Shown: in pieces, positions 7,698 through 33,514 of the stretch
Layout: each line of letters begins with the position of its first letter
How positions within the stretch are numbered: position 1 is the first letter of the stretch
Source: Nitrospirota bacterium
Lineage (GTDB): Bacteria > Nitrospirota > UBA9217
Reading direction: 5' to 3'
DNA length: 64,000 nt
NCBI GenBank assembly: GCA_963840455.1
Contig: CAWIYV010000011.1
Span: 352,001 to 416,000, forward strand
The notes under the pieces: model-generated
Database searches by the model: none
The model's input: only the letters and a program-made list of their open reading frames with translations
Told to the model about the DNA's origin: nothing
Translations under genes and position numbers: made by a program

Positions 7698-7860
7698 TAT
7701 CAGAAGACCATTAAGTCCTTACAAAACCAGTCCGTAACCCATTGAATTAACTATTGCCGAAAAATCATCTAAAAAACTAAAGTTCTTACATTTTCGCGCT
7801 GCATACACTAATGTTGTCAAATTCGCAGACAATTAAGTCCTTACTATTTTACAGCAGAAA
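7698..7860 (+). repeat. Tn7-like left end 2 (TAT terminus)
   Basis: TATCAGAAG-ACCATTAAGTCC ... GCAGACAATTAAGTCC; collinear and homologous with left end 1; preceded by CAAGG. Confidence 0.8.
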
Positions 7861-8094
7861 ATTACAGTCAACACCTCGATGAGAACACAACAAGTTAAGA
7901 GTGGTATTAAAAAGTTTATCACATATTCCCCCCCATTAGCAATCGTAATTCTGGGAAGGATAATATTAGCGAGGAAATGTGACCGATACGGAGAGGGGTG
8001 GAGCTATACCGTATTGAACATGCAGAAAGCCTCAGCTTTACCTACAACTCAGCACCGGAGCTATGTTGATAATGCTGAGAAATTCTGGTTGAAA

Positions 8095-8189
8095 CATTAA
8101 CAACGCACAAGGGGGCGCAGTAGCACAGCCGCCAGAACTGAAAAAGAAGCACGGCTATTCCCGCGTCCCTCTCAATGCTGCTGTTATAC
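8095..8189 (-). repeat. attC-like imperfect inverted repeat
   Basis: Minus strand: GTATAAC-AGCAGCATTGAGAGGGACGCGG...GCGCCCC...GTTAATG, starting about 20 bp after the stop of ORF 8209..9477. Confidence 0.5.
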
Positions 8190-8208
8190 GCTGCTTGTTT
8201 TTATTACC

Positions 8209-9477
8209 TTACAGTGCAGGCATTGGCCAGCCGAAATAGTCAATCGCGTCGCGCCAGCCATTGTTTTTTATACTTTGACAAGTTAAGCCGGGTGGTGCGA
8301 TCCCCCAATGGTTGGTAACATATTTCATTTGAGTAATATTAATGCCAAGGTGCAGGTGATCATTAGCAGTATCCCTGATTATAGCCTTCGTTTTTTTATC
8401 GATTTTATAGGCTTTTCTGATTTGACCTATAGGTATATGATTCGCTACTTTAACCTCCGAGGCTACACCTGCGTTTGCTTTCAAGTCGCTTATTATGTGG
8501 CCATAGTATCCATATAGAGACTGACCATTACAGTCATGCTTTATAACCAAGAAGGCATTGAAATATTCATCATACTCATTCTTGTATTTGTTGCTGTTTG
8601 TCCAATTAAAGACAACAATACCATCGCAAATTGGATAAACATCTGTACCTTCTGGGACCATAATATCGACACCCTCATGTTCGCCATCGCCTGGATAGTT
8701 AGGATCGCACATGCGCCAATGAAATGTATAACTAACAGAATTGTCTAAAGGGAATCTTGGCTGGGTCGTGAAATAAAGCTCCTGTATTTCAGAGTCAGAC
8801 AGGGCACGGTTGTAAATTCGGACTTCATCAATGGTGGAGTTTACGTAGCCTCCCCACGTATTGGTGCCGAGGTAATTGTAATGCGTCCACTGTGGAACGC
8901 CCCCAGTATAGGGATTTGTTCCCTTTAGCTCTCCATCAATGTATATTTTGATGCCACCGGAGCCCCATGTTCCGACAAAATGATACCACTTGCCTGCAAT
9001 CGGCTGAACCCCACTGTCTGCCCAAAGCCAATTCCAAATGGATTTGTCATAGATTCCAAAAACAAGATTGTTCGAATAATAGGGGTGAACGCCAAAGTCG
9101 ATCCCTTCAAAATTCTGATTGATCGGATTCTCTGAGATGCAAAACCACATCCATCCATTACTTGGCAATGGATTAGGTACGGAATGAAAATATACCCAGG
9201 CAGACACGGCGCCATCAGCCAAATAACCCGGATGAGGTAATTCGATATAATCATCAATGCCATCGAAGGCGTAAGCCGTGTTTTCGCGGCCAGACCTATC
9301 TCCCGCTAGAGTTGCTCCATAGACAGCACCAGTGGCCCCGTGGCCGCTCTCATCATCGGCATTGCCATTAAACGGGTAATAAGCAACTAAGCCGTCGTTT
9401 AGATCAGCCGATGCTGAGCCAACCAAGAAAGAACCGACAAACAGAGCAAAAGCTATAAATATCAGGCTCTTCATCAT
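8209..9477 (-). CDS. Secreted LamG-like jellyroll + M23 peptidase domain protein
   Basis: Signal peptide; GLVAYYPFNGNA...DEVRIYNRALS; HEGVD, YGH and HLHLG M23 zinc motifs. Confidence 0.8.
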   Translation of the reverse strand: MMKSLIFIAFALFVGSFLVGSASADLNDGLVAYYPFNGNADDESGHGATGAVYGATLAGDRSGRENTAYAFDGIDDYIELPHPGYLADGAVSAWVYFHSVPNPLPSNGWMWFCISENPINQNFEGIDFGVHPYYSNNLVFGIYDKSIWNWLWADSGVQPIAGKWYHFVGTWGSGGIKIYIDGELKGTNPYTGGVPQWTHYNYLGTNTWGGYVNSTIDEVRIYNRALSDSEIQELYFTTQPRFPLDNSVSYTFHWRMCDPNYPGDGEHEGVDIMVPEGTDVYPICDGIVVFNWTNSNKYKNEYDEYFNAFLVIKHDCNGQSLYGYYGHIISDLKANAGVASEVKVANHIPIGQIRKAYKIDKKTKAIIRDTANDHLHLGINITQMKYVTNHWGIAPPGLTCQSIKNNGWRDAIDYFGWPMPAL

Positions 9478-10100
9478 AATCCTCCCGTTTTGATTCTATC
9501 CGCAAAATACTTTAATAAGCGATGAGGCTGAACATTAGAGTCGTCGTTGACCAAAATTAATACGAATGTATGCTTGAATCGTAGAGCTGTCAACAGTATT
9601 AATTGGATAGAGAACGGTGTAGTGCACGGGTTGAAAATTGATGTATTTTCATAAATGTAAATTCAATGGCTTCAGGATGAACTTATGACCATACACTTTA
9701 GTCAGAATCCTTCACTTCATTCAGAAAAATTCATATTTAGTGGCCACCTACAACTTTACCGACGCGCTCGATTGAAAGAACCGTGAAATATAAGCTGTCC
9801 TCTGCAGCATGATGAAGTCCGGCATAGCCGCAAAGACGATAAACCCGGGCAATGAGAAATGCTTATATCTTTACAACGTCGGGCATAAACTTCGCGTCAA
9901 TCTGTCCAGCGACTGCATAATATAGGAGTCTATTATATATTTTTCTGCATTAGCAATTGTAATTCCGAGAAGAACATTTTAGATGTGGAATTTGACCGAT
10001 ACGGCGAGAAGTGAACCTTAAATACTCATGCAATGCGCTGAACAGTCATTGAAATAAGAAAGGGGTTATTGTGTGCGGACAGTCAGAAGAACAAAAGAAC

Positions 10101-10205
10101 TATCGGGAAGACAATTAAGTCCTTACGAAACCAGTCCGTAACCCATCGATTTTACTATAGCCGAAAAATCACCCGAAAAGATAAGGTTCTTACATTTTCG
10201 CCCTA
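10101..10205 (+). repeat. Tn7-like left end 3 (truncated copy of left end 2)
   Basis: TATCGGGAAG-ACAATTAAGTCCTTACGAAACCAGTCCGTAACCC...GTTCTTACATTTTCG closely matches 7698-7800. Confidence 0.75.
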
Positions 10206-10761
10206 CAACCATCTGTCATAGCCGGCCGCCTTTGCTATGGCCAAGTGGGTCTGATCATACCAAGCATGGGCCGATTGAACTAGTCCGCTTATCAACAGAA
10301 GGAAGATAAACAAGATGGCAAGTAGTGATTTCATTAGTGGATTATATCAGGCATTCTGGCTTATGGAAAGTAGAGATATCCCCCGTTGATTTCACGATGA
10401 AAAGTTCTTTGTGTAAACTACAACTTGTGATATAGTCGTCCAATCAAAGAGTACTTCCTATACTCCTCATAGTTGCATTTCCTTGAAACATGCTCGGTTA
10501 CATTCTGTATTTGATGGAATACCATTAAAATACCCCATTGCGTTCGTTTCTATTTTGGGTTGACACACCCATTCGCCGTTACTTGACATGCCCTGATATA
10601 GGCATACATTTGCAGCACACTTAAGTGCATTAACGTTCTGCTAAAATCGTTTTATCGGCAAACTGCTGTAATTGAACTTTTTAATAGCTAGTTAGCTAGG
10701 AAGACTACTGCTCAACGTCAACCAATAGTCCGAACGGTCAAGGCTGTTTGACTTTTTATAA

Positions 10762-14198: not shown

Positions 14199-15920
14199 CT
14201 ATGCCGCAAATTTGGTATTTCCATTTAAACGAACTTCTTGTCGTCGTACTCCATAAGCCTCTTTCGATTCCGAATATTTATCAAGAACCCATTTGCATTT
14301 AGGATATCTTTCATACTTGGCCAAGATCTTGAGTCCGAGACCAGCCTCTTTGATTATGGCTGTTCGAGTAGCTCGCTTATGCGGTACGGCTATTCTGATC
14401 TTTTCAGCAGCTTTAGTTAACATCCCGCTCCAGAGTCGATCACGGCTCGCCCAATCGATATAACGAGGTGGCTTCGAATTATGACTCCATCTTCTTGCTT
14501 CCGAAAATAACCATGCTCGGTCGTTTCGTAGCAACCGGATGTAAAGCCCTTTGTTTGCTCTTGCAGCCAGTTTCCGGCTTCGGTTCGGCACTTTGCTGAG
14601 AAGTTTCAGCCATTCCTTGCGCCATTGATCTATTTTCTGCTCAGTAACCCTATAGATCGGTCTTTTTGCCTGAAGCATGTTCTTGATGGCTCTGTCACGG
14701 ACACCCATCTTTTTCGCGATAGCAAGCATAGAAAGCCCGCTCCTCCGAAGCCGCCCTGCTTCTTCCTCCCAGGTAGGCCCATATTGCATGACTTTGCTTA
14801 TGACAGGCATCTGAGGATCGCTTTCGCTGACTGCCTGGAACGTGAAATGGAACCCACAGCTACACCGAGCGGATGCGACGTATTTTCGATGCTTATGGCC
14901 TATATATATTATCGGATTTTTAATCGGATATTCTTCATCATGCTTACCATAGGGATTTGGACATCTCCATGGCCCAAGGCCGAAAGGAATCTTATCGGTG
15001 ACTTTGGCGGTGACGCTTTCCAAGAAGAGTTGAACAAGTGCATGTTCCAATGGGTGGAAGGTCTTTTTGGCCGATCTGAATATGTTTCGGAACCAGCTAC
15101 CGTTATGACCAATACGGAAATCGCATTGCAAAAGTCGAAGTAATCTATGTCCAAAGTAAGCAACGAAACCCTTTTCTAGCTTTGCCAAGGATAATTGGAT
15201 CGCACCTTCTATGTATCCGTGCTCTATCGCTTCTTTGCGGTAGATTTTGGTTATTTCTTCTCCTTCCCATCCCGGTATCTGTCTCTGCAGCATATCGCGG
15301 CTTCGACGTGCTATCATCAGAGCCTTATCATGATCACTTTTATTTAAGGCTTTAGATATATTCGCCTGGAAATCTGATGTCGCGTTCGTGGCATCAATAT
15401 AATCGTCGAAGCCTTTAGGATGCATAAGCGCCGAGGTATCAATCAATTGATCACCATGCTCGGGACAAACCAAGACTCCCGGCAGTTGATGACAACGATG
15501 CCAATAAGTTTCTCCATATTTGTCGATGTCATTTCTACTGCAAATATTGCAGAAACGAAGATGGCGTGGTCCTTTAATACGATTCGTCACTATTCCTAAC
15601 TTAAGCTGAATCCCGCTACTATTGTTTGACAATAGTTTTTTTATACATAATGCTGTGTGCTTCGCCGATGTATATCTAGAAAAGTAAGGAAATAATGTGA
15701 AACTATTAAGAAGTTCTTCCCCTTTTCTATTCCATGTCATCATAGTTTTTCTGCAAATAACGCTAAGTGAACTCTGCAATAGTGTCGTAGGTCTTGCAAC
15801 GTGCCCTGTCAATTCAGCCATAACGCCCGCAAAATTACTTGACGATATTTGCATCAAGTATCGAGTAAGAATACTATAAAACAACTCATCCTCATAAGCC
15901 TCGTTCATATACATTCTCAT
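14199..15920 (-). CDS. tnsD: TnsD-family target-selection protein (copy 2, intact)
   Basis: DELFYSILTRY; RFCxxC...YGETYWHRCHQLPGVLVCPEH (TniQ); GPWRCPN and CSCGF; IDWASRD. Confidence 0.9.
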   Translation of the reverse strand: MRMYMNEAYEDELFYSILTRYLMQISSSNFAGVMAELTGHVARPTTLLQSSLSVICRKTMMTWNRKGEELLNSFTLFPYFSRYTSAKHTALCIKKLLSNNSSGIQLKLGIVTNRIKGPRHLRFCNICSRNDIDKYGETYWHRCHQLPGVLVCPEHGDQLIDTSALMHPKGFDDYIDATNATSDFQANISKALNKSDHDKALMIARRSRDMLQRQIPGWEGEEITKIYRKEAIEHGYIEGAIQLSLAKLEKGFVAYFGHRLLRLLQCDFRIGHNGSWFRNIFRSAKKTFHPLEHALVQLFLESVTAKVTDKIPFGLGPWRCPNPYGKHDEEYPIKNPIIYIGHKHRKYVASARCSCGFHFTFQAVSESDPQMPVISKVMQYGPTWEEEAGRLRRSGLSMLAIAKKMGVRDRAIKNMLQAKRPIYRVTEQKIDQWRKEWLKLLSKVPNRSRKLAARANKGLYIRLLRNDRAWLFSEARRWSHNSKPPRYIDWASRDRLWSGMLTKAAEKIRIAVPHKRATRTAIIKEAGLGLKILAKYERYPKCKWVLDKYSESKEAYGVRRQEVRLNGNTKFAA

Positions 15921-15933
15921 TTGCCATCCCTCA

Positions 15934-17640
15934 CTACTCATTTCTTAAACATGAACTTTGTGAATTCTGCGTTTTATCAATCGCGGCAATTTGCAATCCG
16001 AGTACTTTCTTACACTTTGGAAGCTTCTGCAGGTCGGCAATTACATCATGATAATTAAGCGATGTTTTGCTTACTATCTGACGCAATAAAATACGTGCTT
16101 TTCTATTGCTAACTGTCGATTGCAACATAGCCTTGACTAACATCTGACTCCACTGCTTATCGCGAGATGATCAATCGACCTTTTTCCCTCTAAAATTTTT
16201 TACACTTTTGCGCCGTTTATCGTTAGTAGAAAGCAGCCATTTAGAATCATGACGCTTCAATTTTCTATAGATCGATGGGTTCTTTCTAGAAGCTCCAACA
16301 TAACGCTGCTCAGAAAGAGAGTCTATTGTCGCAAGCCACTCCTTTCGCCATTGTTTAATTTGCAATTTCGATACGCTCCTAAACTTCCTTTTCAGTAGTT
16401 GGCACACTCTGGACGCATCCGTACCCATTATTTCCCCGATGGTTCTGAATGTGTACCCTTTTTTTCGCAACCTTGCTGCTTCTGATTTCCACGTGGGTCC
16501 AAACCGAGATATTCGAGCAATTATTGGCATTGCTGCATCTTGAGCATCTGTTTCAGAAAAAATGAAGCAGAACCCGCAATTACACGTTGCAAGCGCTTCG
16601 ACTTCGTTACGGTTATTGGTTCTATAAATGATCATATGTCGTTTCAACGGAAATGGCTCTTTATGATGCGCATATTTGTTGGGACATTTCCAGGGCCCGG
16701 CCGAGAATCTGACTTTATGTGATGTTCTAACTTCAGCTGTATTTTCTAAAAATGTTTGCATTAATGCGTGCGCCGCTGGATTTGCAAGAAATACGTCGTT
16801 AGTGAATAACCTTTTTATCCAATGGCAACTATTGTCAGTTAAATTTAAACCATATCTGGCAAGCAACTTATCGCCGAAATATGTTCTAAAAGCCTCCCTT
16901 ATTTTATTTTGTGAAATGTAAAGAGATCCATCAACGAATCCACGTGCTGATGCCGCCTCTCTATAGGCATTTGTCAATTCCCGCAGATGCCAACGGGTCA
17001 TTGTTCCATTAAGAATCTCTTGGCATCTCTTCGCAACAAGAAAAGCACGTTCCCTTTCTATATTGTTTAATATGGCGCCAATTTGACAGTGCTCTTCCTT
17101 TGCATTAGATGCATTCGCATAGGAGAGGTAGGCATTGTGAACTATGCGACTTTGAGTACTGATTAATTCTTCTCCATGCACAGGACATACTAAAGCACCG
17201 GACAGCTGATGAATTCGATGCCAATATGCTTCACCGTATGACTCCATATCAAGAGCCTTGCATATTTTGCAGAAGCGTAATGTACGCGGAGGTTTCAGCA
17301 AGCCCAAAAAACCTCCGGGCTTAAAGTCGCTTGTTTGCATATTACCTAATTCATAATATTCTTTATACCTAGATTTCCCAACATCATTTACATATCGCGT
17401 ATAGTATGGATACATAGTGTGGTTCTGCAATAAATCATTACTGCTCAGCCCCCAGGCAAGAAATGTCTTTTCCGCCATAATGCTGATGGATATTGGAATG
17501 TGTGCATTAACTGAAGTTAATCGATCAGTCAGCGCTATGCACAATTTACTAGGTACAATGATGCCGGCATGATCAGAGTATCGCGCATTTACGCTATACA
17601 GCAGCTCATCCGGATAAGGGATAGGCGGATATAGTCTCAT
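15934..17640 (-). pseudogene. tnsD: TnsD-family protein (copy 1) with in-frame TGA at 16171-16173
   Basis: PYPDELLYS; FCKIC...YWHRIHQL...CPVH; GPWKCPN. The frame continues KKVD*SSRDKQWSQML, matching IDWASRDRLWSGML of copy 2. Confidence 0.85.
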
Positions 17641-17650
17641 ATTAATTCCT

Positions 17651-19201
17651 TCAATCTTTTACTTCGATCAGTCCGGCCGATGCTAATGCGTTGACGGCAT
17701 TAGCACCACCGCCTTTTTGTACTACCTCTGCAAGGCTGTCCCCTCCGCTGACACATGGTCCTTTGTCTTTGGCCGTCGCATCCAAGACCATACGAACTGC
17801 ACGCTCAGATGTAAGATCCGGATATATGTCAAATAGCGTGCCCAGAATCTCTTGAGCCTGATCTTCGTCATATTTCATCGCAACCAAAGCACAAGCAGCA
17901 CTCATGCGTTCGTATTCCTGGTCTCTTTTCTTAGCACTCGCCTCTAGCTTCCCTAATTTGGCATCGACATCGACTTGCTTGGACAGATCTCTGATTCCTG
18001 CGTCAAGGAGATCCTGGTAATTGGCAATCGCCTTTCTATTTTTTTTCCTCAAGGCTTCAAGCATTGGTTCAACAAGTTTGAACTTATCATCGGCCACCTT
18101 GATGATTTGTTCGATTGAGATACCTGGTGCCTTTGTTCTAAGGGCGTCCAATTGCGTCAATTGAAATAATCTGACAACAAGAGCATGAATTCCCTGGGTG
18201 CGTTCTCTCATTACCGTTGACAGTTCATCGGTCAACGGCACAAACTTATCGGTCCATTGGTACTTCCAGAGTCCATTTAAAAAAAACTTCCATTCTTTTT
18301 TATCCAGACAATCCCAAATGCAGGTACCGTAATCGCCTACGCGCCTTGCTTCTCTGAATGTACCCGTCAGCATCTGCATGGCGCGAGGAGTTCCGATCGT
18401 TACAACAGGAATTTTCGCATTAGCAAACGCAACGAAAAAATTCAGCATCTTGCTTTGTCCAACACCACTTGCATCAAGCAAATTCTGAATTTCATCAATG
18501 ACCAATACACCTAAATTATGCATTTCAGTAATATTGGCCACACTCGATATTAATTCATCAATCGTTCCTTTCGAACTAACCTGCTTACGATACGAAGAAT
18601 CGAGAAGAGAGTCGAGTTTGCTGAGGATACCAAGAAGCAGCTGCTTGAGACTGCCGTCCAAAGGGCAGTCGGCTTTAAGCCAAACCACCTGGGTAAACTT
18701 GAACCTTGAGTGCATTAAGACCTGTGGCAAAAATGAAAGGGTTCTATCGGCCACGGTTGATTTTCCCACGCCCGAAGTTCCAAACAAAGCAAACGATGGC
18801 GCAGTTGATGGCCCTGACTCTTCAATTGCACAGATGTCGCCATTCATTGCTTTTCGATAGCGCTCTGTTCGACTTTTCCTATATGCAGGATCTATCGGAT
18901 TGCGAAATGCATAACCTGCTCGAACAATTAGATTAATCTTTTCGATAACCTCATAGTGAGATGGCAATGGCTCCAAGTAATTATTGATACGGGTTATAAG
19001 CAATGTTCGATCTGCTCTCGGCAAGAGTCTTTCTGCTGCGGATATCCTGGGAAAGCGACCAAATTTTTCCGAAATTTCATTTGCTTCTACGAATTGCGGC
19101 AGCGCCTCTAATAGGGGATTCCCTTTATGTTCCTTAATCGTAGACTCCTTATAAATGGCTTCCATCATTGCTGAAGGCATCTCGCTATCAGTCTTCTTCA
19201 T
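17651..19201 (-). CDS. tnsC: TnsC AAA+ ATPase
   Basis: GNPLLEALP; Walker A GTSGVGKST; Walker B VIDEIQ. Confidence 0.95.
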   Translation of the reverse strand: MKKTDSEMPSAMMEAIYKESTIKEHKGNPLLEALPQFVEANEISEKFGRFPRISAAERLLPRADRTLLITRINNYLEPLPSHYEVIEKINLIVRAGYAFRNPIDPAYRKSRTERYRKAMNGDICAIEESGPSTAPSFALFGTSGVGKSTVADRTLSFLPQVLMHSRFKFTQVVWLKADCPLDGSLKQLLLGILSKLDSLLDSSYRKQVSSKGTIDELISSVANITEMHNLGVLVIDEIQNLLDASGVGQSKMLNFFVAFANAKIPVVTIGTPRAMQMLTGTFREARRVGDYGTCIWDCLDKKEWKFFLNGLWKYQWTDKFVPLTDELSTVMRERTQGIHALVVRLFQLTQLDALRTKAPGISIEQIIKVADDKFKLVEPMLEALRKKNRKAIANYQDLLDAGIRDLSKQVDVDAKLGKLEASAKKRDQEYERMSAACALVAMKYDEDQAQEILGTLFDIYPDLTSERAVRMVLDATAKDKGPCVSGGDSLAEVVQKGGGANAVNALASAGLIEVKD

Positions 19202-22221: not shown

Positions 22222-22235
22222 GGTGTCTCCTTAAA

Positions 22236-22466: not shown

Positions 22467-22487
22467 CACCCCCCCTTGATAATATGC

Positions 22488-22690: not shown

Positions 22691-22700
22691 AAGAGAAACT

Positions 22701-23453
22701 ATGCTATCGTTGCGTATGCTTAAGACCGCAAGACTATTTTATGGTTATACTCAAGAAGAGCTGGCACAAAAAATTGGCAAATCTCAGCGGTATTACACCC
22801 AGATCGAGAATGGACCATCCAAATCAGCTCCTCTCATTAAGAAGCTTTCAAGTATTCTTCAGATGAAGGAATCTTACTTGGGGTCCTCTGCTGAATACAT
22901 CGAATACCCATTTGTGGCCGATTTTTACCTGTTTTGTTTAACTGAAAAAGAGCTATATGATTTGTATAGAAAGATAGTGGAAGATATATGTTCGAAATCT
23001 GAGTTTGTAGACGTTCTTTTTCTGCTGGTCAGGCCTTCTTTGATTGGCGTAATGCCAAGGCTTGGCGGATATCCCGTAATTTACGTTGCCATCCGGGATG
23101 ACAGGGATACGATCTTTCTTTTTAGGAGAAAGCTGAAAACAAGAAGGTATGCTCTGGCGACTTCCGGAAGAAGCAGCGAAATAGCGGAAGATGCTGTCAA
23201 CATGGATGGTTCAAAGAAGCTGAGTAGTAGACAAGTCGAAGTCAAGACATTCTTTAGGTCTGATACCTTTCGAGATATGTTGCAGTCGATAAAAGGAACT
23301 TATGTTTGTGAAATGACTAGAATGGTTACTGAGGATCTTTACCGGCGTATTGAGGAGGGATCTGTTACGCGGGAAGATATAGTCAAGTTATTCCCAAGCG
23401 TCGACTATTTCGAGAGCATGTACCGAGCACATACCAAGATAAAGAATAGATGA
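22701..23453 (+). CDS. Xre/Cro-C1 HTH regulator with long C-terminal domain
   Basis: LKTARLFYGYTQEELAQKIGKSQRYYTQIENG; divergent from the tns operon. Confidence 0.75.
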   Translation: MLSLRMLKTARLFYGYTQEELAQKIGKSQRYYTQIENGPSKSAPLIKKLSSILQMKESYLGSSAEYIEYPFVADFYLFCLTEKELYDLYRKIVEDICSKSEFVDVLFLLVRPSLIGVMPRLGGYPVIYVAIRDDRDTIFLFRRKLKTRRYALATSGRSSEIAEDAVNMDGSKKLSSRQVEVKTFFRSDTFRDMLQSIKGTYVCEMTRMVTEDLYRRIEEGSVTREDIVKLFPSVDYFESMYRAHTKIKNR

Positions 23454-23617
23454 TCCCCTGTTCAGATGAGGACGAATGAGTGTATTCCCAATCCTCTTTC
23501 CTCTGATCCCTCCTGCCACCGGAGTACTGTCGCAAATGAGCTCTCAAGAAAAGACTCAAGAAGGTGCAACTTTTCTTGTTTTTTTTACCAGCCTAGTTTA
23601 TCCTCGACTTGAGTAGT

Positions 23618-23737
23618 ATGAACAATTTTTCTGAACAAGTAAGCTTCATCTGGTTCGTGGCTAATCTTATCAGAGGACTATACAAACCGAATCAGTACAG
23701 GGATGCAAAAGAAGAGATAGTCGAGACACAATTCTAG
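23618..23737 (+). pseudogene. N-terminal remnant of a second type I HsdM
   Basis: Manual translation MNNFSEQVSFIWFVANLIRGLYKPNQY resembles HsdM N-termini. Confidence 0.55.
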
Positions 23738-23767
23738 CCTATTAGCAACAATGTGATTTGAGGCTCT

Positions 23768-26476
23768 ATGGTCAAAAGGCAGGCACCTTCTCCCGACAAT
23801 TCTGAATTTCTGACTCGCCGCAAGTTGATCGACCCTAAACTTAACGCGGCCGGGTGGAAAGTCTTGCCTTTTGACTCTTCTCTCTCTCTTGAAAATTCCA
23901 ATAATTGTGCCATTTCTGAATACCCAACAGACAAGGGTCCCGCGGATTATGCACTTTGCGTTGATGGCAAGATTTCAGGATGATCGAGAGCAAGAGATTT
24001 TCTCTCGGTCCGCGGAATATTATGACTACAGGCTGAACGATGTTCTCACGGCGCTACTCAAATCCCTTCAATTTCCCAATAGGTTCCATGTTTCCTTTTT
24101 CTACTTTCTCAAACTCCATCGGTCTGGCATAGTGACGTCCAGCATATCGTTGAATCATTCTCAGCAGTGGACCCATCGTCACCTCCATCTGCTCTACAGG
24201 AGACTTCGAAGCGAATTTTCAACTCGGACCTGTTCACACTTCCGAAGCTCTCGATGGACAACAGCTTCCTACGGCCCTATCAAGTCCATGCAATTCGGCC
24301 ATCGAAAGGCCATCAAAAGTCAAAACAGCCGAGAATGCTCGTGGCCATCGCTCTGAGTACGGGAGAAACCTTTACCTGGTGGATGGGGATTAATTTTGAT
24401 GAAGAATCCGGGTGCTGCCAAGAGGATTCGATTCCTGGCAGATCGGCGTGTCATTGGCGGCCCAGGCAGTCCGTTCATTTGCATCCTTCGAAGCCGAACC
24501 AGGGCTCCAAGTTCGATAGCATTTACGAGGTGTACAGTCAGCGGTTTCAGACTGGGGATTTTGATGAAAGGTGAGAAGTTCGATCCCAAGGTGTTGCCTA
24601 ATAGCTATCTGACCGATCCACAGCCAGGTCATGCCTTTGTATATGTGTCCACGATCCAGCGCATGACCATCAACCTCTTTGGAAGCGGGGGTACATTCGG
24701 AGATGAAGAGGAAAAAGACGACGAAGCATCACAGATAGAGATCCCAAATCATGCGTTTGACGTAATCATTGCAGATGAATGTCACCGAGGATATACCGCT
24801 CAACAGGTAGCTGTCTGGCGCGATACATTGGACCACTTCGATGCCATCAAGATCGGCCTGACAGCCACACCCGCCGCACATACGACGACTTATTTCCGAG
24901 ATGTCGTTTATCGTTATGAATACGATGGCTGGGCCGTGCGCGAAGGCTACCTCGTTGACTACGATGCCGTGACAATTCGTTCTAATATCCGCATGGGTGG
25001 CGCCTTCCTCAAGGAAGGCGAACTCGTAGGTGTTGTTGACACGTCTACCGGCGCTGAACAAATGGACTATCTTGAAGATGAGCGTCAATACCAGACTTCA
25101 GATATAGAAGCTCGGGTCACGGTTCCAGATTCGAACCGTAAAATACTGCAAGAGCTCAAGAAGTACACGGACGAGCATGAGGCCACCTATGGCCGCTTTC
25201 CAAAAACGTTAATCTTCGCGGCAAATGACCTACAGCATACCTCTCACGCTGATCAGCTTGTGGAGACTGCGCGTACCATCTTTGGTCGTGGCGAAGCGTT
25301 CGCTACCAAGATCACCGGAATGGTTGACCGTCCACTTCAGCGTATCCGTGAGTTCCGAAATAGGCCGCAGCCCTGCATTGCTGTCACCGTGGACCTTCTT
25401 TCAACAGGGGTAGATATCCCGGATCCGAGTTTATCGTCCTTCTTCGGCCGGTTAAGTCCAGAATACTATTTGAGCAGATGCTCGGCCGGGGCACAAGGAA
25501 GGGTGTTGCCTATCCGGATAAATCGCATTTCACCGTGTTCGATTGTTTCGATGGTACTCTGCTCGACTACTTCCGGAATTCGACATCCATAACAGCAGCC
25601 TTGCCGGCTCCCAAAACCCGCTCCATCATCGATATCATCGATGACATCTGGCAAAACAAGGACAGGGAGTATAATACTCGCTGTCGTCAAGCGCCTGCAG
25701 CGAATCGAAAAGGAAATGTCCGCAAAAGCTAGATATGATTTTGCCGCCTTTATTCCTGAAGGCGATATGGGGCGTTTTGCTGAGGCGTTGACCGGAAACC
25801 AACAAGCAATTTGCCGAAACTATGAATATCCTTCGCAATCCTGTATTTCAGGATCTCCTCATTAATTATCGACGTGCGGAGAGAACGTTCGTTAAAGGGT
25901 ACGAAGCTCAGGATGTGGTTACGAGTGATCGCCTGATTCACGCCCCTGGCGGCGTTAAATACAAACCGGAAGACTATTTGTCTGCATTCGCTCAATATAT
26001 AGTAGAGCATCGCGATGACAGACCAGGCTGTGCAGATACTTCTGAACCGTCCAAAAGATTGGAATGTTAGCGCTCTTGCAGAACTTCGGCAGAAGCTAGC
26101 AGCAGCACCCATGCGTTTCAGCGAAAAGGATCTACAAAAGGCACATGCCATGACCTTTCATAAGGAGATGGTAGATATCATTTCCATGGTAAAGCATGCC
26201 GCAAAAGCGGAAGAGAGCCTATACACATCCCATGAACGAGTAGAGCGGGCTCTCATGCGGATAACCGGCAAGCAAACCTTTACCTCTGATCAGCTGGTAT
26301 GGTTAGAACGAATACGTATCCATTTGGAACAGAACCTCTCGATTGATAAGATAGATTTTGACGATCAGCCGACTTTTTCTGGATATGGCGGCTGGAGCAA
26401 GGCAAATCGAATATTTAACGACAAACTTGGAGCAATGCTGACCAAGATTACGAAGCTGTTGCTGCATAAGGATTAA
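23768..26476 (+). pseudogene. hsdR: Type I restriction subunit R, multiply frameshifted
   Basis: Collinear fragments: TRRKLIDPKL..GW..ADYAL, LRPYQ, IADECHRG, GLTATP, MLGRGTR and an EcoEI-R-like C-terminus. Confidence 0.85.
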
Positions 26477-26478
26477 CA

Positions 26479-27933
26479 ATGAGTGATATCGTCAACAAGC
26501 TCTGGGGTTTCTGCCATACACTGCGCCACGATGGCATCGATTACGGCGATTACATCGAACAGCTTACTTACCTGTTGTTCCTGAAAATGGCTGATGAGCG
26601 CGATATTAACCTTTCCAAAACAGTCTGGATCAATGAAAAGGGTAAAAAAGTCATAACTGATTGCGGATGGCCGGCCTTGCGAGATAAGTCCGGAACAGCC
26701 TTGACCGATCATTTTGTCGATGTTCTCCGTGCTCTTGGTAAGCAGACAGGAATGCTGGGCGACATTTTCAGTCAATCCATGTCTCGTTTCAATAATCCAG
26801 TAAATCTCAAAAAATTGATCGGAATGATCGATGATGAAGAATGGTCTTCCATGGATGTGGACATAAAAGGGGCAGCGTTCGAGGGCCTTCTTGAAAGAGC
26901 GGCAAGCGAGGGAAAGAAGGGGGCGGGACAATACTTTACGCCACGTGTCCTCATTCAATCAATCGTACGTGTCATGAAGCCCGATCCGCGAGGAAAGTCG
27001 GATTTCAAAATCAGTGATCCTGCCTGTGGAACTGGAGGATTTCTCGTCGTTTCCTATGAGTGGCTTGTCGAAGCGTCTAAGGGTGTTTTTGATCGGAGCG
27101 AGGCGAAGCGCATACGAAGCAAAACGTACTTCGGCCAGGACCTTGTGCCTCGTCCCCGCAGACTTGCACTAATGAATCTCTTTCTACACGGAGTCGAGCC
27201 ACACATCTATCTGGGTGATACGATCTATACACCACCTCGCGCTGAGCGATATGACGTGATCCTCACAAATCCGCCCTTCGGCACCAAAGGTGCGAACCAG
27301 GCACCTGACAGAGAAGACTTCACCATTGAAACGAGTAACAAGCAGCTCAACTTCGTTCAACATGTCATGAACATTCTTAAACCCGGTGGTCGCGCAGCAA
27401 TAGTGTTGCCGGACAACTGTCTCTTTGAAGATAAAGCGGGCGAGGTCTTTGAAATCTTGATGAAGGACTGCAACTTACACACGGTCCTGCGTCTGCCGCG
27501 TGGTACGTTCACACCTTACAGCCAGGGAGTGAAGGCAAACGTCATCTTCTTCCAAAAAGGATTACCCACGGAAGATACCTGGATATTTGACGCTCGCTCC
27601 AATGTGCCAGGCATTACAAAGAAAGACCGTCCGCTTTCGCCACTTCACTTTGCGGAGTTTGAGAAGTGCTATGGCAAAGACCCAAATGGACGGAGTAAAA
27701 GGATCGACCTCGGGGAAGAAGGTCGGTTCCGGAAGTTCTCTATATATGACATCAAAAAGCGTGATTACAAGCTCGATGTTACCTGGCTTAAGGATGAATC
27801 GCTTGACGACAGTGACGAATTGCCAGAGCCTCAGGAATTGGCGGAAGAAGCAATAACGGAACTTGAAGCGATTGTTGACGATTTGCGAGTAATCGTGACG
27901 TTGACGGAAAAGGAAGAGGGCGTGAAGAAATGA
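26479..27933 (+). CDS. hsdM: Type I RM methyltransferase subunit
   Basis: GAGQYFTPR, DPACGTGGF, NPPF. Confidence 0.95.
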   Translation: MSDIVNKLWGFCHTLRHDGIDYGDYIEQLTYLLFLKMADERDINLSKTVWINEKGKKVITDCGWPALRDKSGTALTDHFVDVLRALGKQTGMLGDIFSQSMSRFNNPVNLKKLIGMIDDEEWSSMDVDIKGAAFEGLLERAASEGKKGAGQYFTPRVLIQSIVRVMKPDPRGKSDFKISDPACGTGGFLVVSYEWLVEASKGVFDRSEAKRIRSKTYFGQDLVPRPRRLALMNLFLHGVEPHIYLGDTIYTPPRAERYDVILTNPPFGTKGANQAPDREDFTIETSNKQLNFVQHVMNILKPGGRAAIVLPDNCLFEDKAGEVFEILMKDCNLHTVLRLPRGTFTPYSQGVKANVIFFQKGLPTEDTWIFDARSNVPGITKKDRPLSPLHFAEFEKCYGKDPNGRSKRIDLGEEGRFRKFSIYDIKKRDYKLDVTWLKDESLDDSDELPEPQELAEEAITELEAIVDDLRVIVTLTEKEEGVKK

Positions 27934-29312
27934 TTGATGATCTTCCTAAAGGCTGGGCTAGCGCCAAAATCGAGCAGCTTTTCGATTTCAAATACGGCAA
28001 GGGGCTCCCGCAGGAGAAACGTAATATAAATGGTGCGGTCAAAGTGTTTGGCTCCAATGGCGTAGTGGGTGTTCACACACACGCGGTTACGAATGGGCCA
28101 ACGATAATCGTTGGCCGGAAGGGCTCGGTGGGCGAAGTTCACTTGTCATCTGAAAAGTGCTGGCCTATCGATACTACATATTATATTGATGCATTTCCTG
28201 CAGAAATGTCTCCAAATTATTGGACACTTTTCCTTAGGTCACTTCGACTCGGTCAGCAGGAAAAGTCTTCTGCAATCCCTGGTATTAGCCGTAGTGACAT
28301 TTATGACATCTATGTGCCGATTCCCCCGCTGAGTGAGCAGCGTCGTATCGAGGCAAAACTGGCGGAGATTCTTGAAAAAGGCGGTGACTGCCAAAAACGG
28401 CTGGAAAAAATTCCGGCAATTCTTAAACGCTTTCGCAAATCTGTCCTTGCCTCTGCTTGCTCGGGCCGTCTTACGGCAGATTGGCGAGATAAGAATCCGT
28501 ACGTAAAGCCATACTCAATTAAGGGACAGCAAGATAGTTCGGAGGTACGCGACGACGAGGCGATCGATCCCTCAAGTTGGCGGATAACGCAACTTGGCAT
28601 TTTGACCACACTGATAACGAGTGGTTCTCGCGGGTGGGCGAAGTACTATTCTAAATCGGGTTCTATGTTCATTCGAGCGCAGAACATAAACTCCGACGTT
28701 CTCAATTTGGATGATATTGCCTTTGTTAAGCTACCTGCCCGCACAGAAGGATTGAGGACTAAAATCCAAAAGCACGATCTCCTCGTTACGATTAGTGGCG
28801 CTAACGTCACCAAGTCCGCACTCGTTGAAGAGTCGCCAAAGGATGCTTACGTGAGCCAACATGTGGCTTTAGTTCGGCTTTCCGATGTGCGTCTGAGCAA
28901 GCTCATCTATTTTTCGATCATTAGCCCTGCACACGGAAGGAAACAGCTACTTGCTGCTACTTATGGGCAAGGTAAACCCGGACTTAATTTAGACAACATT
29001 CGTGAAATGATTGTTTCAATTCCTCCTCTCAATGAACAACAGGAAATCGTCCGACGAGTAAACGAAATGTTTGCGTTAGCCGACCAAATCGAGGCCCGCT
29101 ATGCAAAGTCCAAAGCATATGTGGACAAAATCTCTCAATCAATTCTCGCGAAAGCTTTTCGTGGTGAACTTGTACCGCAGGATCCGAATGATGAACCCGC
29201 ACATATTCTGCTGCAACGCATTCATACAATAAAAAATAGCCTTCATAACCTCTCTCCAAAGCGATCTGCGAAAAAAGGCCGTAAGCCAGCCAAGCGTTTC
29301 CAGATTTCTTAA
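27930..29312 (+). CDS. hsdS: Type I RM specificity subunit
   Basis: Two target-recognition domains with PPLSEQRRI and PPLNEQQEIV repeats; AFRGELVPQDP. Confidence 0.95.
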   Translation: MIDDLPKGWASAKIEQLFDFKYGKGLPQEKRNINGAVKVFGSNGVVGVHTHAVTNGPTIIVGRKGSVGEVHLSSEKCWPIDTTYYIDAFPAEMSPNYWTLFLRSLRLGQQEKSSAIPGISRSDIYDIYVPIPPLSEQRRIEAKLAEILEKGGDCQKRLEKIPAILKRFRKSVLASACSGRLTADWRDKNPYVKPYSIKGQQDSSEVRDDEAIDPSSWRITQLGILTTLITSGSRGWAKYYSKSGSMFIRAQNINSDVLNLDDIAFVKLPARTEGLRTKIQKHDLLVTISGANVTKSALVEESPKDAYVSQHVALVRLSDVRLSKLIYFSIISPAHGRKQLLAATYGQGKPGLNLDNIREMIVSIPPLNEQQEIVRRVNEMFALADQIEARYAKSKAYVDKISQSILAKAFRGELVPQDPNDEPAHILLQRIHTIKNSLHNLSPKRSAKKGRKPAKRFQIS

Positions 29313-29659
29313 TATTATTACCGGCCCCCCCCCAAACGCCACAATCACAAGAGCATCAACAATATCTAATAACAGGAATGGCCACCATGTTGTTGATTAA
29401 TATCATTTTTAACCCTTATTTTCAGCCAGTTACAAACTAAAACATTTTTCAACCGCGCCATTCAAGGATGAAATCCATGCATACCCACGAAGATCCCGTG
29501 AATACTGACTAAATATGGAGTCAAAATACACTTGACTCCACTATATATAGTGATATATTCAGCGTGATGGATTTATTCTTGTGGTTTGATCATTTTCAGC
29601 GCTGAACACGAACATTGGATAATAGCTGCAAAGGCAGACCCTATATATCACGATATGCC

Positions 29660-29739
29660 TTACGCATGCTGCGTAAAAAGTCCTTGACTCGAGGGACTTG
29701 AACTGGTATTGTAAGGATGGGATTACGCATATTGCGTAA
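29660..29739 (+). promoter_or_regulatory. Sigma70 promoter bracketed by two TTACGCA-N3-TGCGTAA operators
   Basis: Palindromes at 29660-29676 and 29723-29739; TTGACT (29684), 17 nt spacer, TATTGT (29707). Confidence 0.75.
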
Positions 29740-29752
29740 AAGGAGGTGTGCG

Positions 29753-30127
29753 ATGAAGTTCGGTCAGCTCTTGAAAAAGGCCCGGACTGGGGAGAAAAAA
29801 ACATTAAGGGAGGTTGCTGCCGCATCTGGACTTTCAATCAGTTTGGTATCAGACATAGAGCATGGCAGAAGAAGCGTATCCTCGTTGGAGGTTGTTGGGA
29901 AGATCGAAAAGTTCCTGAATATAACAGATGGATCTTTAGCAAAAGCAGCTCAGAAGGAAAAGAGTCTCGATGTGCCACCCGACGCAAAGGAGCTATTTTG
30001 GAAACGGGGACCTGAACTGAGCATGGCACTCTTGAGAGCATCAACCGAACTTTCAGAAGAGGCGATACACAAGCTTATCGATGAAATGCAGAAGAATGCT
30101 CAGCAGGCACAGGCAGAGGAGGATTAG
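29753..30127 (+). CDS. Xre-family HTH repressor (ImmR/CapH-like)
   Basis: FGQLLKKAR...TLREVA..SGLSISLVSDIEHGRR; AGGAGG RBS. Confidence 0.85.
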   Translation: MKFGQLLKKARTGEKKTLREVAAASGLSISLVSDIEHGRRSVSSLEVVGKIEKFLNITDGSLAKAAQKEKSLDVPPDAKELFWKRGPELSMALLRASTELSEEAIHKLIDEMQKNAQQAQAEED

Positions 30128-30130
30128 TTG

Positions 30131-30727
30131 ATGTCGGTCTCGGAACTTGCTTTCCCCGCGATGCGTGGATCTCGAATAGACAACCTTGCATTGGATCTCA
30201 TAAGAACGATCCAGCCGGACGTCCTCGCGGGAAAGTGTTTTTTTGACGTAGAGCGATTCGTGGATGTGCACCTTGAGGAGATGACAGGCATTACACCAGA
30301 CTATAGGCGTGGACTTCCCGATGGTATTTATGGATACACGCACACAGCGGAAAATAGCATGGTGATCAATTCAGACCTTCTCGAAAACCCCTTCGGCGAC
30401 AACGAACGATTTTATCGATCAACAGTAGCGCATGAGGTAGGACACTGCATCTTACACGTTCCAATATTACGACGGCAAAAGAGAGATAAGATTTTTACAG
30501 AGAACAAGAAAGAGGAAAAGGTTGCACTCTACCGTAAGACCCATTTTCCACTGTATCAGAATCCTGAGTGGCAGGCATGGCGCTTTGCGGGGGCTCTATT
30601 AATGCCCGAGGTTGTAATTAGATCATTGCGCGGCCAGGGAGCGAGTATACAGGAAGTCGCAACTCATTTTAATGTGAACGGGAGTTTTGTGGAGAGCAGA
30701 ATGAAAGCGTTAAAAATGACCACATAA
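30131..30727 (+). CDS. ImmA/IrrE-family metallopeptidase (CapP-like)
   Basis: RSTVAHEVGH (HExxH); EWQA..FAGALLMP. Confidence 0.9.
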   Translation: MSVSELAFPAMRGSRIDNLALDLIRTIQPDVLAGKCFFDVERFVDVHLEEMTGITPDYRRGLPDGIYGYTHTAENSMVINSDLLENPFGDNERFYRSTVAHEVGHCILHVPILRRQKRDKIFTENKKEEKVALYRKTHFPLYQNPEWQAWRFAGALLMPEVVIRSLRGQGASIQEVATHFNVNGSFVESRMKALKMTT

Positions 30728-31081
30728 AAAAAGCGTCAAGCCGTTGTTAGAGCAACGCTTGACGCTACCCCCTCTAGGGAACGAGGGGTGTCTTGACCCG
30801 GGTGGGCCAGACCACATAAGAAAGATACCATTCCTTTCGCCCACCTGTCAAGACCAATAATCTGTTTCCCAGAAAGCTGGTGATGGCCTTATGGCCAAAT
30901 CCGGATCCACGGTCGTATTCCGTCCGTGGATAATCGCTAAGGGTAGGCGCTACGCGTCCGCCTGCAGCAAGGGCTTTTCCCATTCAGGTACAGAAGAATC
31001 CTGATGGGACGGGGGAGGTCTGTGTCTCCCCCTATTCCAAGAAAGCTCGGCATTGGGAATGCTGAGCGATAGGAGATCACT

Positions 31082-31261
31082 ATGGCTAAAAATCCGCCCT
31101 ATGGAGACGGACACCGGCACGGAGCAGTAACAGGAAGGTCTCAAACGCTGAACACAAAGACCAATCTTTGGACGAAGCGCGATACTGAGACAGGTCGTTT
31201 TATCAACCAGAAGTCTGACCCGAAACCCTTCAAAGGGGTTCGGAAAGAAGGAGGCAAATAA
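31082..31261 (+). CDS. Small basic protein (59 aa; not in the ORF track)
   Basis: AGGAG RBS; MAKNPPYGDGHRHGAVTGRSQ...WTKRDTETGRF...KPFKGVRKE; stop 1 nt before the next ATG. Confidence 0.75.
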   Translation: MAKNPPYGDGHRHGAVTGRSQTLNTKTNLWTKRDTETGRFINQKSDPKPFKGVRKEGGK

Positions 31262-31262
31262 C

Positions 31263-31916
31263 ATGGAAAGGGACAACAAGCCCGGGCACAATCACGAGGA
31301 CCACATCACTATCATCGTGAATCAGGTCTCTCACCACATTTCGAGCAGCACCGTAACAGCAGCCTATCTCCGCGAACTTGCGGGAGCCGGAGCTGACTAT
31401 GAGGTATGGAAGGTAATCAAATCTCCTGATCCGGAAGGACAGCTGCCTGTCGATGATATGCAGGTCAAGGACAGCATTGAGGTAAAGAGCGGGGACAAGT
31501 TCAGGGTCGTCCCTCCGGGAACCTTCGGAACGGTGGCTACATTGCCGGCTGGCCAGCTTTCTCGGGAGTTGGAGCAACTCCATGAACAGGGCTGTGAAAC
31601 CGAAGTGCATGAAGACAGCAGCCTCACGATTGTCATATTCAAAAAGTTCCCTCTTCCTAAGGGGTATAACATGGAGGCAACCGATGTTCTTATAAAGGTT
31701 CCTTTGTCATACCCGAATGGACAACTGGACATGTTCTGGACCGAACCGAACCTTCGACTCGCAAGCGCCAATGGCCAGACAGCGACATCGGTCGAGCAGA
31801 TCCTTGGCAGACAATGGTTGCGGTTCTCGTGGCATCCCCAGAAATGGAACCCGGGCAGGGACAACATACTGACCTTCGTTGAGTTCATCAACAGGAGGCT
31901 CGCCCAACTGAAATGA
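31263..31916 (+). CDS. Ubiquitin-like (multi-ubiquitin type) domain fused to a prokaryotic E2-like domain
   Basis: ITIIVN...LRELAG...IEVKSGDKFRVVPPGTFG, then FPLPKGYN...VP.SYP..LDMFW..P...WLRFSWH...WNPG.D. Confidence 0.8.
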   Translation: MERDNKPGHNHEDHITIIVNQVSHHISSSTVTAAYLRELAGAGADYEVWKVIKSPDPEGQLPVDDMQVKDSIEVKSGDKFRVVPPGTFGTVATLPAGQLSRELEQLHEQGCETEVHEDSSLTIVIFKKFPLPKGYNMEATDVLIKVPLSYPNGQLDMFWTEPNLRLASANGQTATSVEQILGRQWLRFSWHPQKWNPGRDNILTFVEFINRRLAQLK

Positions 31917-33313
31917 GCAAAGAATATACCATACGAATCTCTGAACAAGATCTCAAGCTGTGCAGGTCGGCCGTCATGGCCGACCTGCCTAAAGAGAGCG
32001 CAGTATTTCTCCTGGCGGGCAGAAAAACGATAGGCGATCGAGAGGAACTTCTGATGCGGCGTGTCGTGGTAATCCCGAAATCCGAGTACCGCATTCAGAG
32101 CGATGTCCACCTCGATATTTCACCCCAAGCTATCAATGGCCTGGTAGCCCTATGTGAACAAAACGGCCTCGGCGCGATACTCTGTCACAGCCACCCGACA
32201 GACTCGCCGTACTCGCCGTCAGATGACAAAGGCGAAAAACGCATCGCCGAGACGATCTGGAAGTTTGTGCCAGAAGCACCTGTCGGGTCCTTGTTGATTT
32301 CTCCCGGTCAATACCGCGCCCGCATTTGGCTTCCTGGCCGAGCCCATTCAGCTGTCCAAGGCATTACCGTTGTTGGCAGACACATTCACCGGATCGGTCT
32401 CAACGGAAGCAGCAAAACAATGTCCTTCAATCGCGGTCTTTATGACAGACAGGTCCTCGCATTCGGAGACCAGGGACAGGAGGCAGTGTCGAAGACGAAG
32501 ATTGCCATTGTCGGCATGGGAGGTACTGGTTCGCCAACGGCAGAGCAGGCCGTCAGACTCGGCGTTAAAGATATCCTTCTCATCGATCCCGATACTCTCA
32601 GTGATTCGAATATAACCCGGGTATACGGCAGCTTTTACCGGGACATCACTCGACCGTGGTGGAAAAAGCTGCTGCCCATCAACGGCAAGCAGTCCAAGGT
32701 AGATATGATAGCTCGCCACCTCAGAAGTATTGCACCGGACGCAAAAATAGTCGCTTTGCAGGAGAACATCGTTACATCTTCTGCCGCCCGGGCATTACTA
32801 GACAGAGATGTCATATTCTGCTGCACAGATGAGCACTGGGGCAGATCGGTCGTGAACCAGATCGCGCATCAGTACATGATTCCTGTCATCAACATAGGAG
32901 TTCAGATCGACTCAAAGAACGGCGTGATACAAGGGGCCTCTGGATCCATCCACATTATCCGGCCGGATGCTCCTTGCCTCTGGTGCTATGAATTCCTCAG
33001 CGGTAAGCGTATTCGGGCAGAGAGCCTTCCGCCGGAACAAAGAGATTCTGAGCTGAGGGAAGGCTACGTAGAGAACATTGACGCGAAGGCGCCATCTGTT
33101 GTGTCCTTGACAACAACGCTTTCCGGTCATGCAGTAACAGCCTTCCTGCAGCTTGTCACTGATTTTAGGGGAGCGGCTGGAGGCTTTCACAGTCTGAACT
33201 ACAGCATTATGGAAGGAATCGTCAGGCGATGTTCAACAACGACTGATGAGCACTGCATCTGTAAATCGGCCAAAGGTTATGGAGACATGAAAGCCCTCCC
33301 CACTGTGGCATAA
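31913..33313 (+). CDS. JAB/MPN metallopeptidase + ThiF/E1 adenylation fusion
   Basis: E...HSHP...SPSD; YDRQ, GMGGTGS, IDPD....SN..R, CTD, CLWC and C-x-C zinc ligands. Confidence 0.9.
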   Translation: MSKEYTIRISEQDLKLCRSAVMADLPKESAVFLLAGRKTIGDREELLMRRVVVIPKSEYRIQSDVHLDISPQAINGLVALCEQNGLGAILCHSHPTDSPYSPSDDKGEKRIAETIWKFVPEAPVGSLLISPGQYRARIWLPGRAHSAVQGITVVGRHIHRIGLNGSSKTMSFNRGLYDRQVLAFGDQGQEAVSKTKIAIVGMGGTGSPTAEQAVRLGVKDILLIDPDTLSDSNITRVYGSFYRDITRPWWKKLLPINGKQSKVDMIARHLRSIAPDAKIVALQENIVTSSAARALLDRDVIFCCTDEHWGRSVVNQIAHQYMIPVINIGVQIDSKNGVIQGASGSIHIIRPDAPCLWCYEFLSGKRIRAESLPPEQRDSELREGYVENIDAKAPSVVSLTTTLSGHAVTAFLQLVTDFRGAAGGFHSLNYSIMEGIVRRCSTTTDEHCICKSAKGYGDMKALPTVA

Positions 33314-33350
33314 GCAGCATACTCATGCTATGCCATTTCAAGGCAAAGAG

Positions 33351-33380
33351 AGGGAGGGGCGTTGACGCCTCTCCCTTTTT
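33351..33380 (+). terminator. Intrinsic terminator
   Basis: AGGGAGGGGCGT-TG-ACGCCTCTCCCT followed by a T run. Confidence 0.7.
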
Positions 33381-33410
33381 ATTACCAGAACTCAACTAAG
33401 CAAAACATAG

Positions 33411-33514
33411 GAACTCAATTGTCTATGCCAATATAATCGGATACCGTCTTTAGACGACTTAATTGTTTAACGATGACTTAATTGTATAAGTTACGACTTA
33501 ATTGTTTCTTTATA
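33411..33514 (-). repeat. Tn7-like right end (TAT terminus)
   Basis: GACTTAATTGT at 33456, 33475 and 33495, plus a degenerate copy near 33412; reverse strand begins TATAAAGAA-ACAATTAAGTC. Confidence 0.9.

Follow-up and report, generated by a model that had tools for sequence, protein, structure and literature searches.

The prototype Tn7 carries TnsA, TnsB, TnsC and TnsD and inserts downstream of glmS. According to the passages on element ends in the papers cited here, an 8-bp terminal block with 5'-TGT is a usual, not a defining, feature of Tn7-like ends (PMC11406308, PMC9881144); a 2024 review describes the ends as typically TGT/ACA, with some type I-F3 CRISPR-associated transposons (CASTs), together with McCAST, a type I-D CAST, as non-TGT cases, and the reason for the conservation as not understood (PMC11406308). 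McCAST, whose boundaries are 5'-TAC/GTA-3', is active, and a change of its ends to TGT had a modest effect; in the same paper almost 20% of the checked cyanobacterial tnsAB-fusion elements with target-site duplications lacked TGT/ACA, and TGT/ACA is stated not to be universally conserved (PMC9881144, Hsieh and Peters, Nucleic Acids Res 2023). TGA/TCA ends have been described in type I-F3 CASTs (PMC9723613) and in Tn7005 (bioRxiv 10.1101/2025.07.27.667033). TAT or TAA ends, or a TnsD-guided clade that has them, are not mentioned in these passages; the supplements (e.g. figure S5B of PMC9881144) may list them. Here we analysed a stretch of 64,000 nucleotides from a Nitrospirota genome (the window, meaning this whole stretch; all coordinates are window positions), in which positions 306 to 33514 hold what appears to be an array of Tn7-like elements; the insertion lies next to an acetolactate-synthase-like gene, 6 nt downstream of its stop codon. 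Two ends in this array start with TAT, and we consider it likely, from comparison with relatives, that such TA termini are the habit of one TnsB clade that uses ordinary Tn7 chemistry and joins 3'-YA ends (Y, pyrimidine).

The window resembles Tn7 in having separate tnsA and tnsB genes, an AAA+ tnsC and TniQ/TnsD selectors, a TnsB that matches that of Tn7 (7PIK), sites that are spaced on the left and packed on the right, terminal blocks of 8 bp and a duplication of 5 bp, with the right end facing the 3' end of a conserved gene. The genes for TnsA, TnsB, TnsC and TnsD, asymmetric multi-site ends and the duplication are all present, and the 5'-TGT block is lacking at 7698 and 33514. Unlike in Tn7, about half of the ends in the clade start with TA, the attachment gene of the window is acetolactate-synthase-like, there is no tnsE, two tnsD paralogues are present, and tnsA is separated from the right end by cargo (11 kb in the window, up to ~44 kb in relatives), with the left end 144 to 2000 bp after tnsD. 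Two clade members adjoin a gene end that we take to be glmS, read from its last codons only. Like McCAST, as far as the cited passages describe it, these elements have ends starting with TA, i.e. a 3'-TA end that is joined, which in McCAST was shown to be active and here is suggested by insertion footprints. Unlike McCAST and the cyanobacterial elements, which are tnsAB fusions and CRISPR-guided or cyanobacterial, the window has separate tnsA and tnsB, targeting would be by TnsD, and no cas genes were found among the 31 open reading frames annotated between 1 and 35200; in place of TAC, these ends have TAT or TAA as their trinucleotide. Exceptions at position 3 are shared with the type I-F3 CASTs and Tn7005, as in the TGA left end of locus L084 and in a betaproteobacterial group with block consensus TGATAGGA; TGA keeps 3'-CA, unlike the ends here, which change the C. 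The TA-ended clade falls among exceptions to TGT of a kind already known, and the idea of TA ends is less new than the earlier note on this DNA implied, since non-TGT Tn7-like ends had already been published (PMC9881144). What is gained is modest, since a type I-D CAST had already been shown to function with TA-starting ends.

The termini of the array were read directly. Positions 306 to 308 are TGT, followed by CGCGA and then GACAATTAAGTC, giving the terminal block TGTCGCGA; positions 7698 to 7700 are TAT, followed by CAGAA (block TATCAGAA) and then GACCATTAAGTC. At the right end the plus strand TTTCTTTATA stops at 33514, and the reverse strand reads TATAAAGA, which is the terminal block, and then AACAATTAAGTC, with TAT at 33512 to 33514; the transferred strand of this end finishes ...TTTATA-3'. 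At all three ends the trinucleotide starts an 8-bp block adjoining the outermost TnsB-type site, and this spacing is canonical at 7698 and 33514. The TAT at these two ends and the TGT at the outer end 306, as claimed in the earlier note, were thereby confirmed, the former in the 8-bp register. The same note had listed a further TAT copy at 10101, and TAT is indeed present there, but it lies 9 nt, not 8, before the site (GACAATT) and is out of register by one base. This partial left end (10101 to 10206, plus strand) has one site (10110 to 10121) and matches positions 2 to 105 only of the left-end profile; about 105 nt survive, and because it is a truncated relic of the 7698 lineage, with 85% identity to the 7698 end, it is not an independent third case.

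With up to two mismatches, the site core GACAATTAAGTC had 10 matches in the window, all within four end regions, compared to 3.78 expected by chance, and 0 of 100 shuffles reached 10. No exact core was found elsewhere in the genome by a genome scan. Three of these regions are left-type with spaced sites (306, 7698 and 10101) and one, at 33514, is right-type with packed sites, a Tn7-like layout. The canonical left end (306 to 471, plus strand; nhmmer left-end profile, E 2.4e-40) has sites at 314 to 325, 412 to 423 and 436 to 447, and the complete left end at 7698 to 7860 (plus strand; E 6.9e-37), 71% identical to it, has sites at 7706 to 7717 (GACCATTAAGTC) and 7828 to 7839. In the right end (33412 to 33514, minus strand) three sites (33495 to 33506, 33475 to 33486 and 33456 to 33467) are 19 to 20 bp apart, and a fourth (33412 to 33423) lies 44 bp further in. 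A right end of a second, related site type was found at 7584 to 7691 (plus strand), with four GTAACAACTTTATTCCC sites (0.05 expected) spaced 43, 20 and 20, in the same layout as the 33514 end and similar to the sites of the relative L058. Its terminus at 7691 reads ...TGCAAACA (reverse TGTTTGCA); since it terminates ...AAACA, with sites laid out as in the 33514 end, we class this right end as canonical, of the TGT type but with related sites. TGT blocks thus stand at 306 and 7691, and TAT at 7698 and 33514. Between the ends 7698 and 10101, direct repeats of ~95 nt (7913 to 8005 and 9927 to 10018, 72 to 76% identity) flank a LamG/M23 peptidase gene.

Ends were paired with an octamer-blind script, whose sole requirements were a site-like motif at 8 nt from the terminus and 5-bp flanks that are identical. 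In the window the sole perfect 5-bp flank match was GAAGG, at 301 to 305 and 33515 to 33519, so that the partner of the TAT end at 33514 is the TGT end at 306; the script gave no score for 7698, in whose first site a C stands in place of the A that the pattern requires. The earlier note had taken 7698 and 33514 as the two ends of one inner element with the same change at both. TAT is present at both, but their pairing is one of two possible anatomies and is not established, and whether one element has this change at both of its ends is uncertain, since in the perfect duplication the TAT right end goes with 306, a TGT end. The six bases between the ends 7691 and 7698 (7692 to 7697, GCAAGG) can be read by eye as GAAGG plus one C, or as CAAGG, a 4/5 match to the duplication. 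A tandem history would fit this sequence, in the order GAAGG / 306-7691 / G(C)AAGG / 7698-33514 / GAAGG with one C inserted in the middle copy, and under it the autonomous element would be 7698-33514, with TAT at both ends. A composite history would fit too, in which the latest move was that of 306-33514 as a single unit (left end TGT, right end TAT) with older internal ends. Similarity to the left end of G041, another Nitrospirota metagenome-assembled genome (MAG), does not choose the partner of 33514 (65.5% for 306, 64.4% for 7698). The insertion that generated GAAGG would have used the 33514 end together with the TGT end 306 or, in the tandem history, with the TAT end 7698. Under both histories the TAT end at 33514 would have served as the working right end, unless it was mutated later.

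We compared these ends with those of related elements. TnsB relatives were obtained as 79 loci from protein-guided scans, and a TnsB tree was made of 35 rows hand-picked from 81. The window fell in a 12-row clade with a Shimodaira-Hasegawa-like approximate likelihood ratio test (SH-aLRT) support of 100 (window, L050, L051, L058, L064, L060, L062, L063, L059, L061, L084 and L053), and in this tree all TA-ended elements were within that clade. Clade ends were located in genomes with the left-end profile and site patterns, and the right end was found far upstream of tnsA. The pairing script gave exactly one solution in each of six of the eight pairings tried: the window (left TGTCGCGA, right TATAAAGA, duplication GAAGG), L058 in genome G405 (TATCGGAT at both ends, TAAGG), L051 in G409 (left TAACGGGT, right TATCTGCG, AAATT), L060 in G407 (left TATGGACT, right TGTGACGT, CCTGG), L084 in G408 (left TGACGATA, right TAACGAGA, GCTTG) and L059 in G406 (TGTCTGGC at both ends, TCAGG). 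The two failures were G041 (flanks 0/5) and window 7698/33514, whose first 7698 site was missed by the pattern.

The earlier note had named TGT/ACA in all close relatives as the outcome that would speak against it; this outcome was not seen, and TA (TAT or TAA) starts seven of the 12 flank-checked ends in these six elements from different phyla, and five of the six have at least one TA end. Position 1 was T at all 12 ends, position 2 was A at seven and G at five, never a pyrimidine, and position 3 was T at nine and A at three. TA was found at 4/6 right ends and 3/6 left ends. Three elements (the window, L060 and L084) combine one TG with one TA end, and L059 has TGT at both. Further left ends in the 8-bp register, read without a flank check, were those of L050 (TATCAGGT), L063 (TATGAAGC), G041 (TATCAAGA) and L061 (TGTATTGC), and the right end of G041 is TATGGAGA. 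Among the unpaired ends in the same register, TAT was read in L050, L063, both ends of G041 and window 7698, and TGT in L061, G042 (a further Nitrospirota MAG) and window 7691. Outside the clade, all seven ends read were TGT (both ends of L110, with duplication, and one each of L052, L069, L073, L107 and L132). The tnsA, tnsB, tnsC and tnsD frames are open in L058, L051, L060 and L059, and also in L050, which is outside the six and of which only the left end is known.

This comparison supports the view that TA termini reflect what the TnsB lineage accepts, and random decay is unlikely. The proposal of the earlier note, a TnsB that transfers 3'-TA rather than decayed ends, therefore holds up insofar as TA is a trait of the lineage, but position 2 is relaxed in the clade and has not fully switched to TA. 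In the mechanism that we propose, TnsB at the outermost site would cut and join the 3' end at a distance of 8 bp on its outer side, TnsA would cut the other strand, and TnsC with TnsD would bring the complex to the attachment site. The terminal T (3'-A on the transferred strand) is invariant, with G or A as second and T or A as third base, and the active site of the clade would accept either pyrimidine before the terminal A, so that its enzymes most probably join 3'-YA ends. We lean, by a little, towards the further view that this TnsD-guided Tn7-like clade, with TnsA and TnsB, has lost the need for C before the terminal A and joins 3'-TA and 3'-CA alike, and that the choice between them may tune end strength or left/right asymmetry. 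If true, comparison of the clade TnsBs with Tn7 TnsB would indicate by which residues enzymes of the Mu/Tn7/retroviral type recognise the terminal dinucleotide. A clade with mixed TG and TA ends, some of them in one element, is also a ready comparison set for why the TGT/ACA rule exists, and end-calling anchored on TGT or TGA (e.g. the methods, as described in part, of PMC10702557 and PMC9723613) would miss or misplace the boundaries of these 30- to 50-kb cargo-rich islands.

Several points weigh against TA termini as a habit of the clade. We infer the cleavage and joining of TA ends from insertion footprints. The copy in the window is in decay (frameshifted tnsB, hsdR in pieces, one left end truncated) and probably immobile, so that a later G-to-A change at 33513 is possible for this copy taken alone. 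L084, in which tnsA was not detected and the TnsB frame is short, may be dead for these reasons. At this attachment site the nearest relatives of the right end differ, G041 having TAT and G042 TGT; both are relics, G041 being 3.7 kb without tns genes and with flanks 0/5, and G042 being cut after the third site. The clade is also rare and the sample small (six flank-checked elements): in the phylum, 5/401 genomes, the window's own included, match the window TnsB at E<=1e-30, the other four being no more than 33% identical, and in the family of G407, 3/201 genomes, G407 included, match the L060 TnsB at E<=1e-100.

Random decay, in which the ends were TGT at the time of movement and underwent G-to-A changes later in a dead element, would draw on the same damage to the window and on the TGT kept by G042, and the ends at 7698 and 10101, being so similar, may share one ancestral change. 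We nevertheless regard it as unlikely. TA recurs at seven of the 12 flank-checked ends in the six elements, four of which have open tns frames, and decay would respect neither a purine-only position 2 nor an invariant position 1. In L058 the two ends are identical over the first 20 nt, TAT included, so that two independent later mutations are implausible. The main rival, to which we likewise give a low probability, is that TA ends are usable but much weaker than TG ends and that the preference of the clade TnsB is unchanged, TA persisting since low transposition is tolerated or favoured, or since one TG end suffices. At Mu and retroviral ends, changes of the penultimate base lower activity and do not always abolish it, and the mixed elements, together with the TGT ends of L059 and L061, are in keeping with such attenuation. 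However, L058 and L051 have TA at both ends and yet perfect duplications and open tns frames, and TA is as common at right ends as at left. That the true canonical termini lie elsewhere and TAT is merely internal is very improbable, as in five elements the TA termini, in the 8-bp register, are directly bordered by 5-bp flanks that are identical, the octamer-blind search giving one solution for each element, the canonical member L059 shows the same register, and shifted registers give by eye no matching flanks at both ends, although G408 has TGT 2 nt outside its TAA terminus and G041 has TGTCG just outside its TAT.

Habitual use of TA ends by this clade is our favoured reading. The array comprises one set of tnsA, tnsB and tnsC with two tnsD genes, and mostly defence-type cargo; the tnsB is now frameshifted. 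The attachment gene (33526 to 35193, minus strand) encodes an acetolactate synthase large subunit-like thiamine pyrophosphate enzyme (Pfam; NCBIfam NF006187, 799.5 bits against a cut-off of 509), and its stop codon lies 6 nt beyond the right copy of GAAGG. The packed-site right end faces this gene, as expected of TnsD-directed insertion. Related right ends were found at the same gene end and at the same distance, within 1 nt, in G041 and G042. In G001 and G005, two genomes of the same genus, the gene is present and the array absent, and their intergenic sequence could not be aligned at the junction for an empty-site comparison. A 40-bp exact direct copy of the 3' end of the gene (window 33526 to 33565) lies ~1.4 kb left of the window start (G000:C11:350569-350608), and its left flank is GCAAGG, the same hexamer as at window 7692 to 7697. 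G001, without the array, has a 53-bp copy at 81% identity, so the copy predates the array; an older integrative element may have left it as a scar, or it may be an attachment site that serves as a decoy. In G041, a 3.7-kb element (L036, G041:C5:334113-337850) beside the same attachment gene has TAT at both ends and flanks that do not match; the only products that it encodes are a methyltransferase, a glycosyltransferase and a DUF4386 protein, and it is an array remnant or else a non-autonomous element.

The transposition genes are all on the minus strand. tnsA (21388 to 22221) was identified by Pfam Tn7_TnsA-like_N (9.6e-19). tnsB (19201 to 21431; Pfam Mu-transpos_C), the only copy in the genome, has Tn7 TnsB 7PIK as its best solved relative (E 8e-95) and is split by one frameshift between ~21180 and 21213, with ~70 N-terminal residues in one frame and a 651-aa remainder with the catalytic core, matching 7PIK over residues 15 to 614, in another; it is for this reason presumably inactive now. 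tnsC (17651 to 19201; Pfam AAA+, AAA_22/TniB) is followed by two tnsD paralogues with TniQ and TnsD domains, of 489 aa (16171 to 17640; Pfam TnsD 1.2e-47) and 580 aa (14199 to 15941; 3.4e-67). The closest relatives (L050, L051, L058 and L060) have one tnsD each, the product of which is nearer to the 580-aa paralogue (34 to 42% identity) than to the other (29 to 34%); the pair in the window suggests a second attachment site.

Cargo was annotated with Pfam and PADLOC. The left segment (579 to 7021) has no transposition genes and encodes a DUF2971/PDC-S31-like protein, a split metallo-beta-lactamase-fold/RMMBL protein, a WYL-WCX regulator and a tetratricopeptide repeat protein, and the LamG/M23 peptidase and a CHAP-domain protein are further cargo of the array. 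Between tnsA and the right end (22653 to 33313, plus strand) lie genes for a helix-turn-helix (HTH) protein, a type I restriction-modification system (hsdR, hsdM and hsdS), a CapH/CapP-like HTH and M78 peptidase pair, and a Prok-E2_E and ThiF/E1 pair. hsdR (23871 to 26476) is broken up into three or more open frames, among them a ResIII piece, an EcoEI_R_C piece and an unassigned frame, and hsdM and hsdS look whole. The stretch from 29717 to 33313, with the CapH/CapP-like HTH and M78 peptidase pair and then Prok-E2_E and ThiF/E1, a ubiquitin-like conjugation cassette, is transposon cargo of the defence type.

Other searches for relatives and ends gave little. Homologues of the window TnsB were not found in viral contigs or in G041 to G044, and the best match in a plasmid search was 39% identical. 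The exact right-end pattern gave 19 loci in genome contigs, ~7 of them of the window type; a three-site right-end pattern gave two loci in metagenome contigs, both repeats of known types; and the exact left-end pattern gave eight loci, of which only G041 was relevant. The right ends of L050, L061 and L063 were not found, for L063 also not via a comM 5' fragment, and a right-end double-site pattern run on G410 to G414 gave two matches (G414 and G413) and none for L061, L063 or L064. An inverted-repeat and duplication scan of 80 loci, where most elements exceed the 22-kb loci, gave a clear pair only for L110 (TGT/TGT), matches of 19 to 21 of 28 being noise; a 26/28 match in L064 was rejected as ends, being GC-rich sequence not starting with T, and a k-mer inverted-match scan gave no informative signal.

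A T[A/G]TCGCGAGG motif shared upstream of tnsA was considered as the right end of L050 and L051 and rejected, as it had neither sites nor flanks that match; the distance from tnsA to the true right end of L051 is ~44 kb. This motif, which equals the first 9 nt of the window 306 end, precedes a ~110-nt segment that is identical in a Nitrospirales MAG and a gammaproteobacterial MAG (L050:1552-1720, L051:8500-8650). The segment folds better than shuffles (z -2.35), has no Rfam match, and may represent a non-coding RNA or else an internal end left as a relic. The TGT right ends of L025, L022 and L030 were left out of the clade counts because no TnsB lineage could be assigned to them; tblastn of six Tns pieces against loci L017 to L049 gave no match better than E 0.24. 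Mostly betaproteobacterial right ends with the same site core (ACAATTAAGTCTGTCGG) were found at L017, L018, L019, L021, L023, L024, L026, L027 and L032 to L035. Individual loci vary from the block consensus of this group, and seven of the ends immediately follow a gene whose last letters are ...CGAACTGGTGA or closely similar to it.

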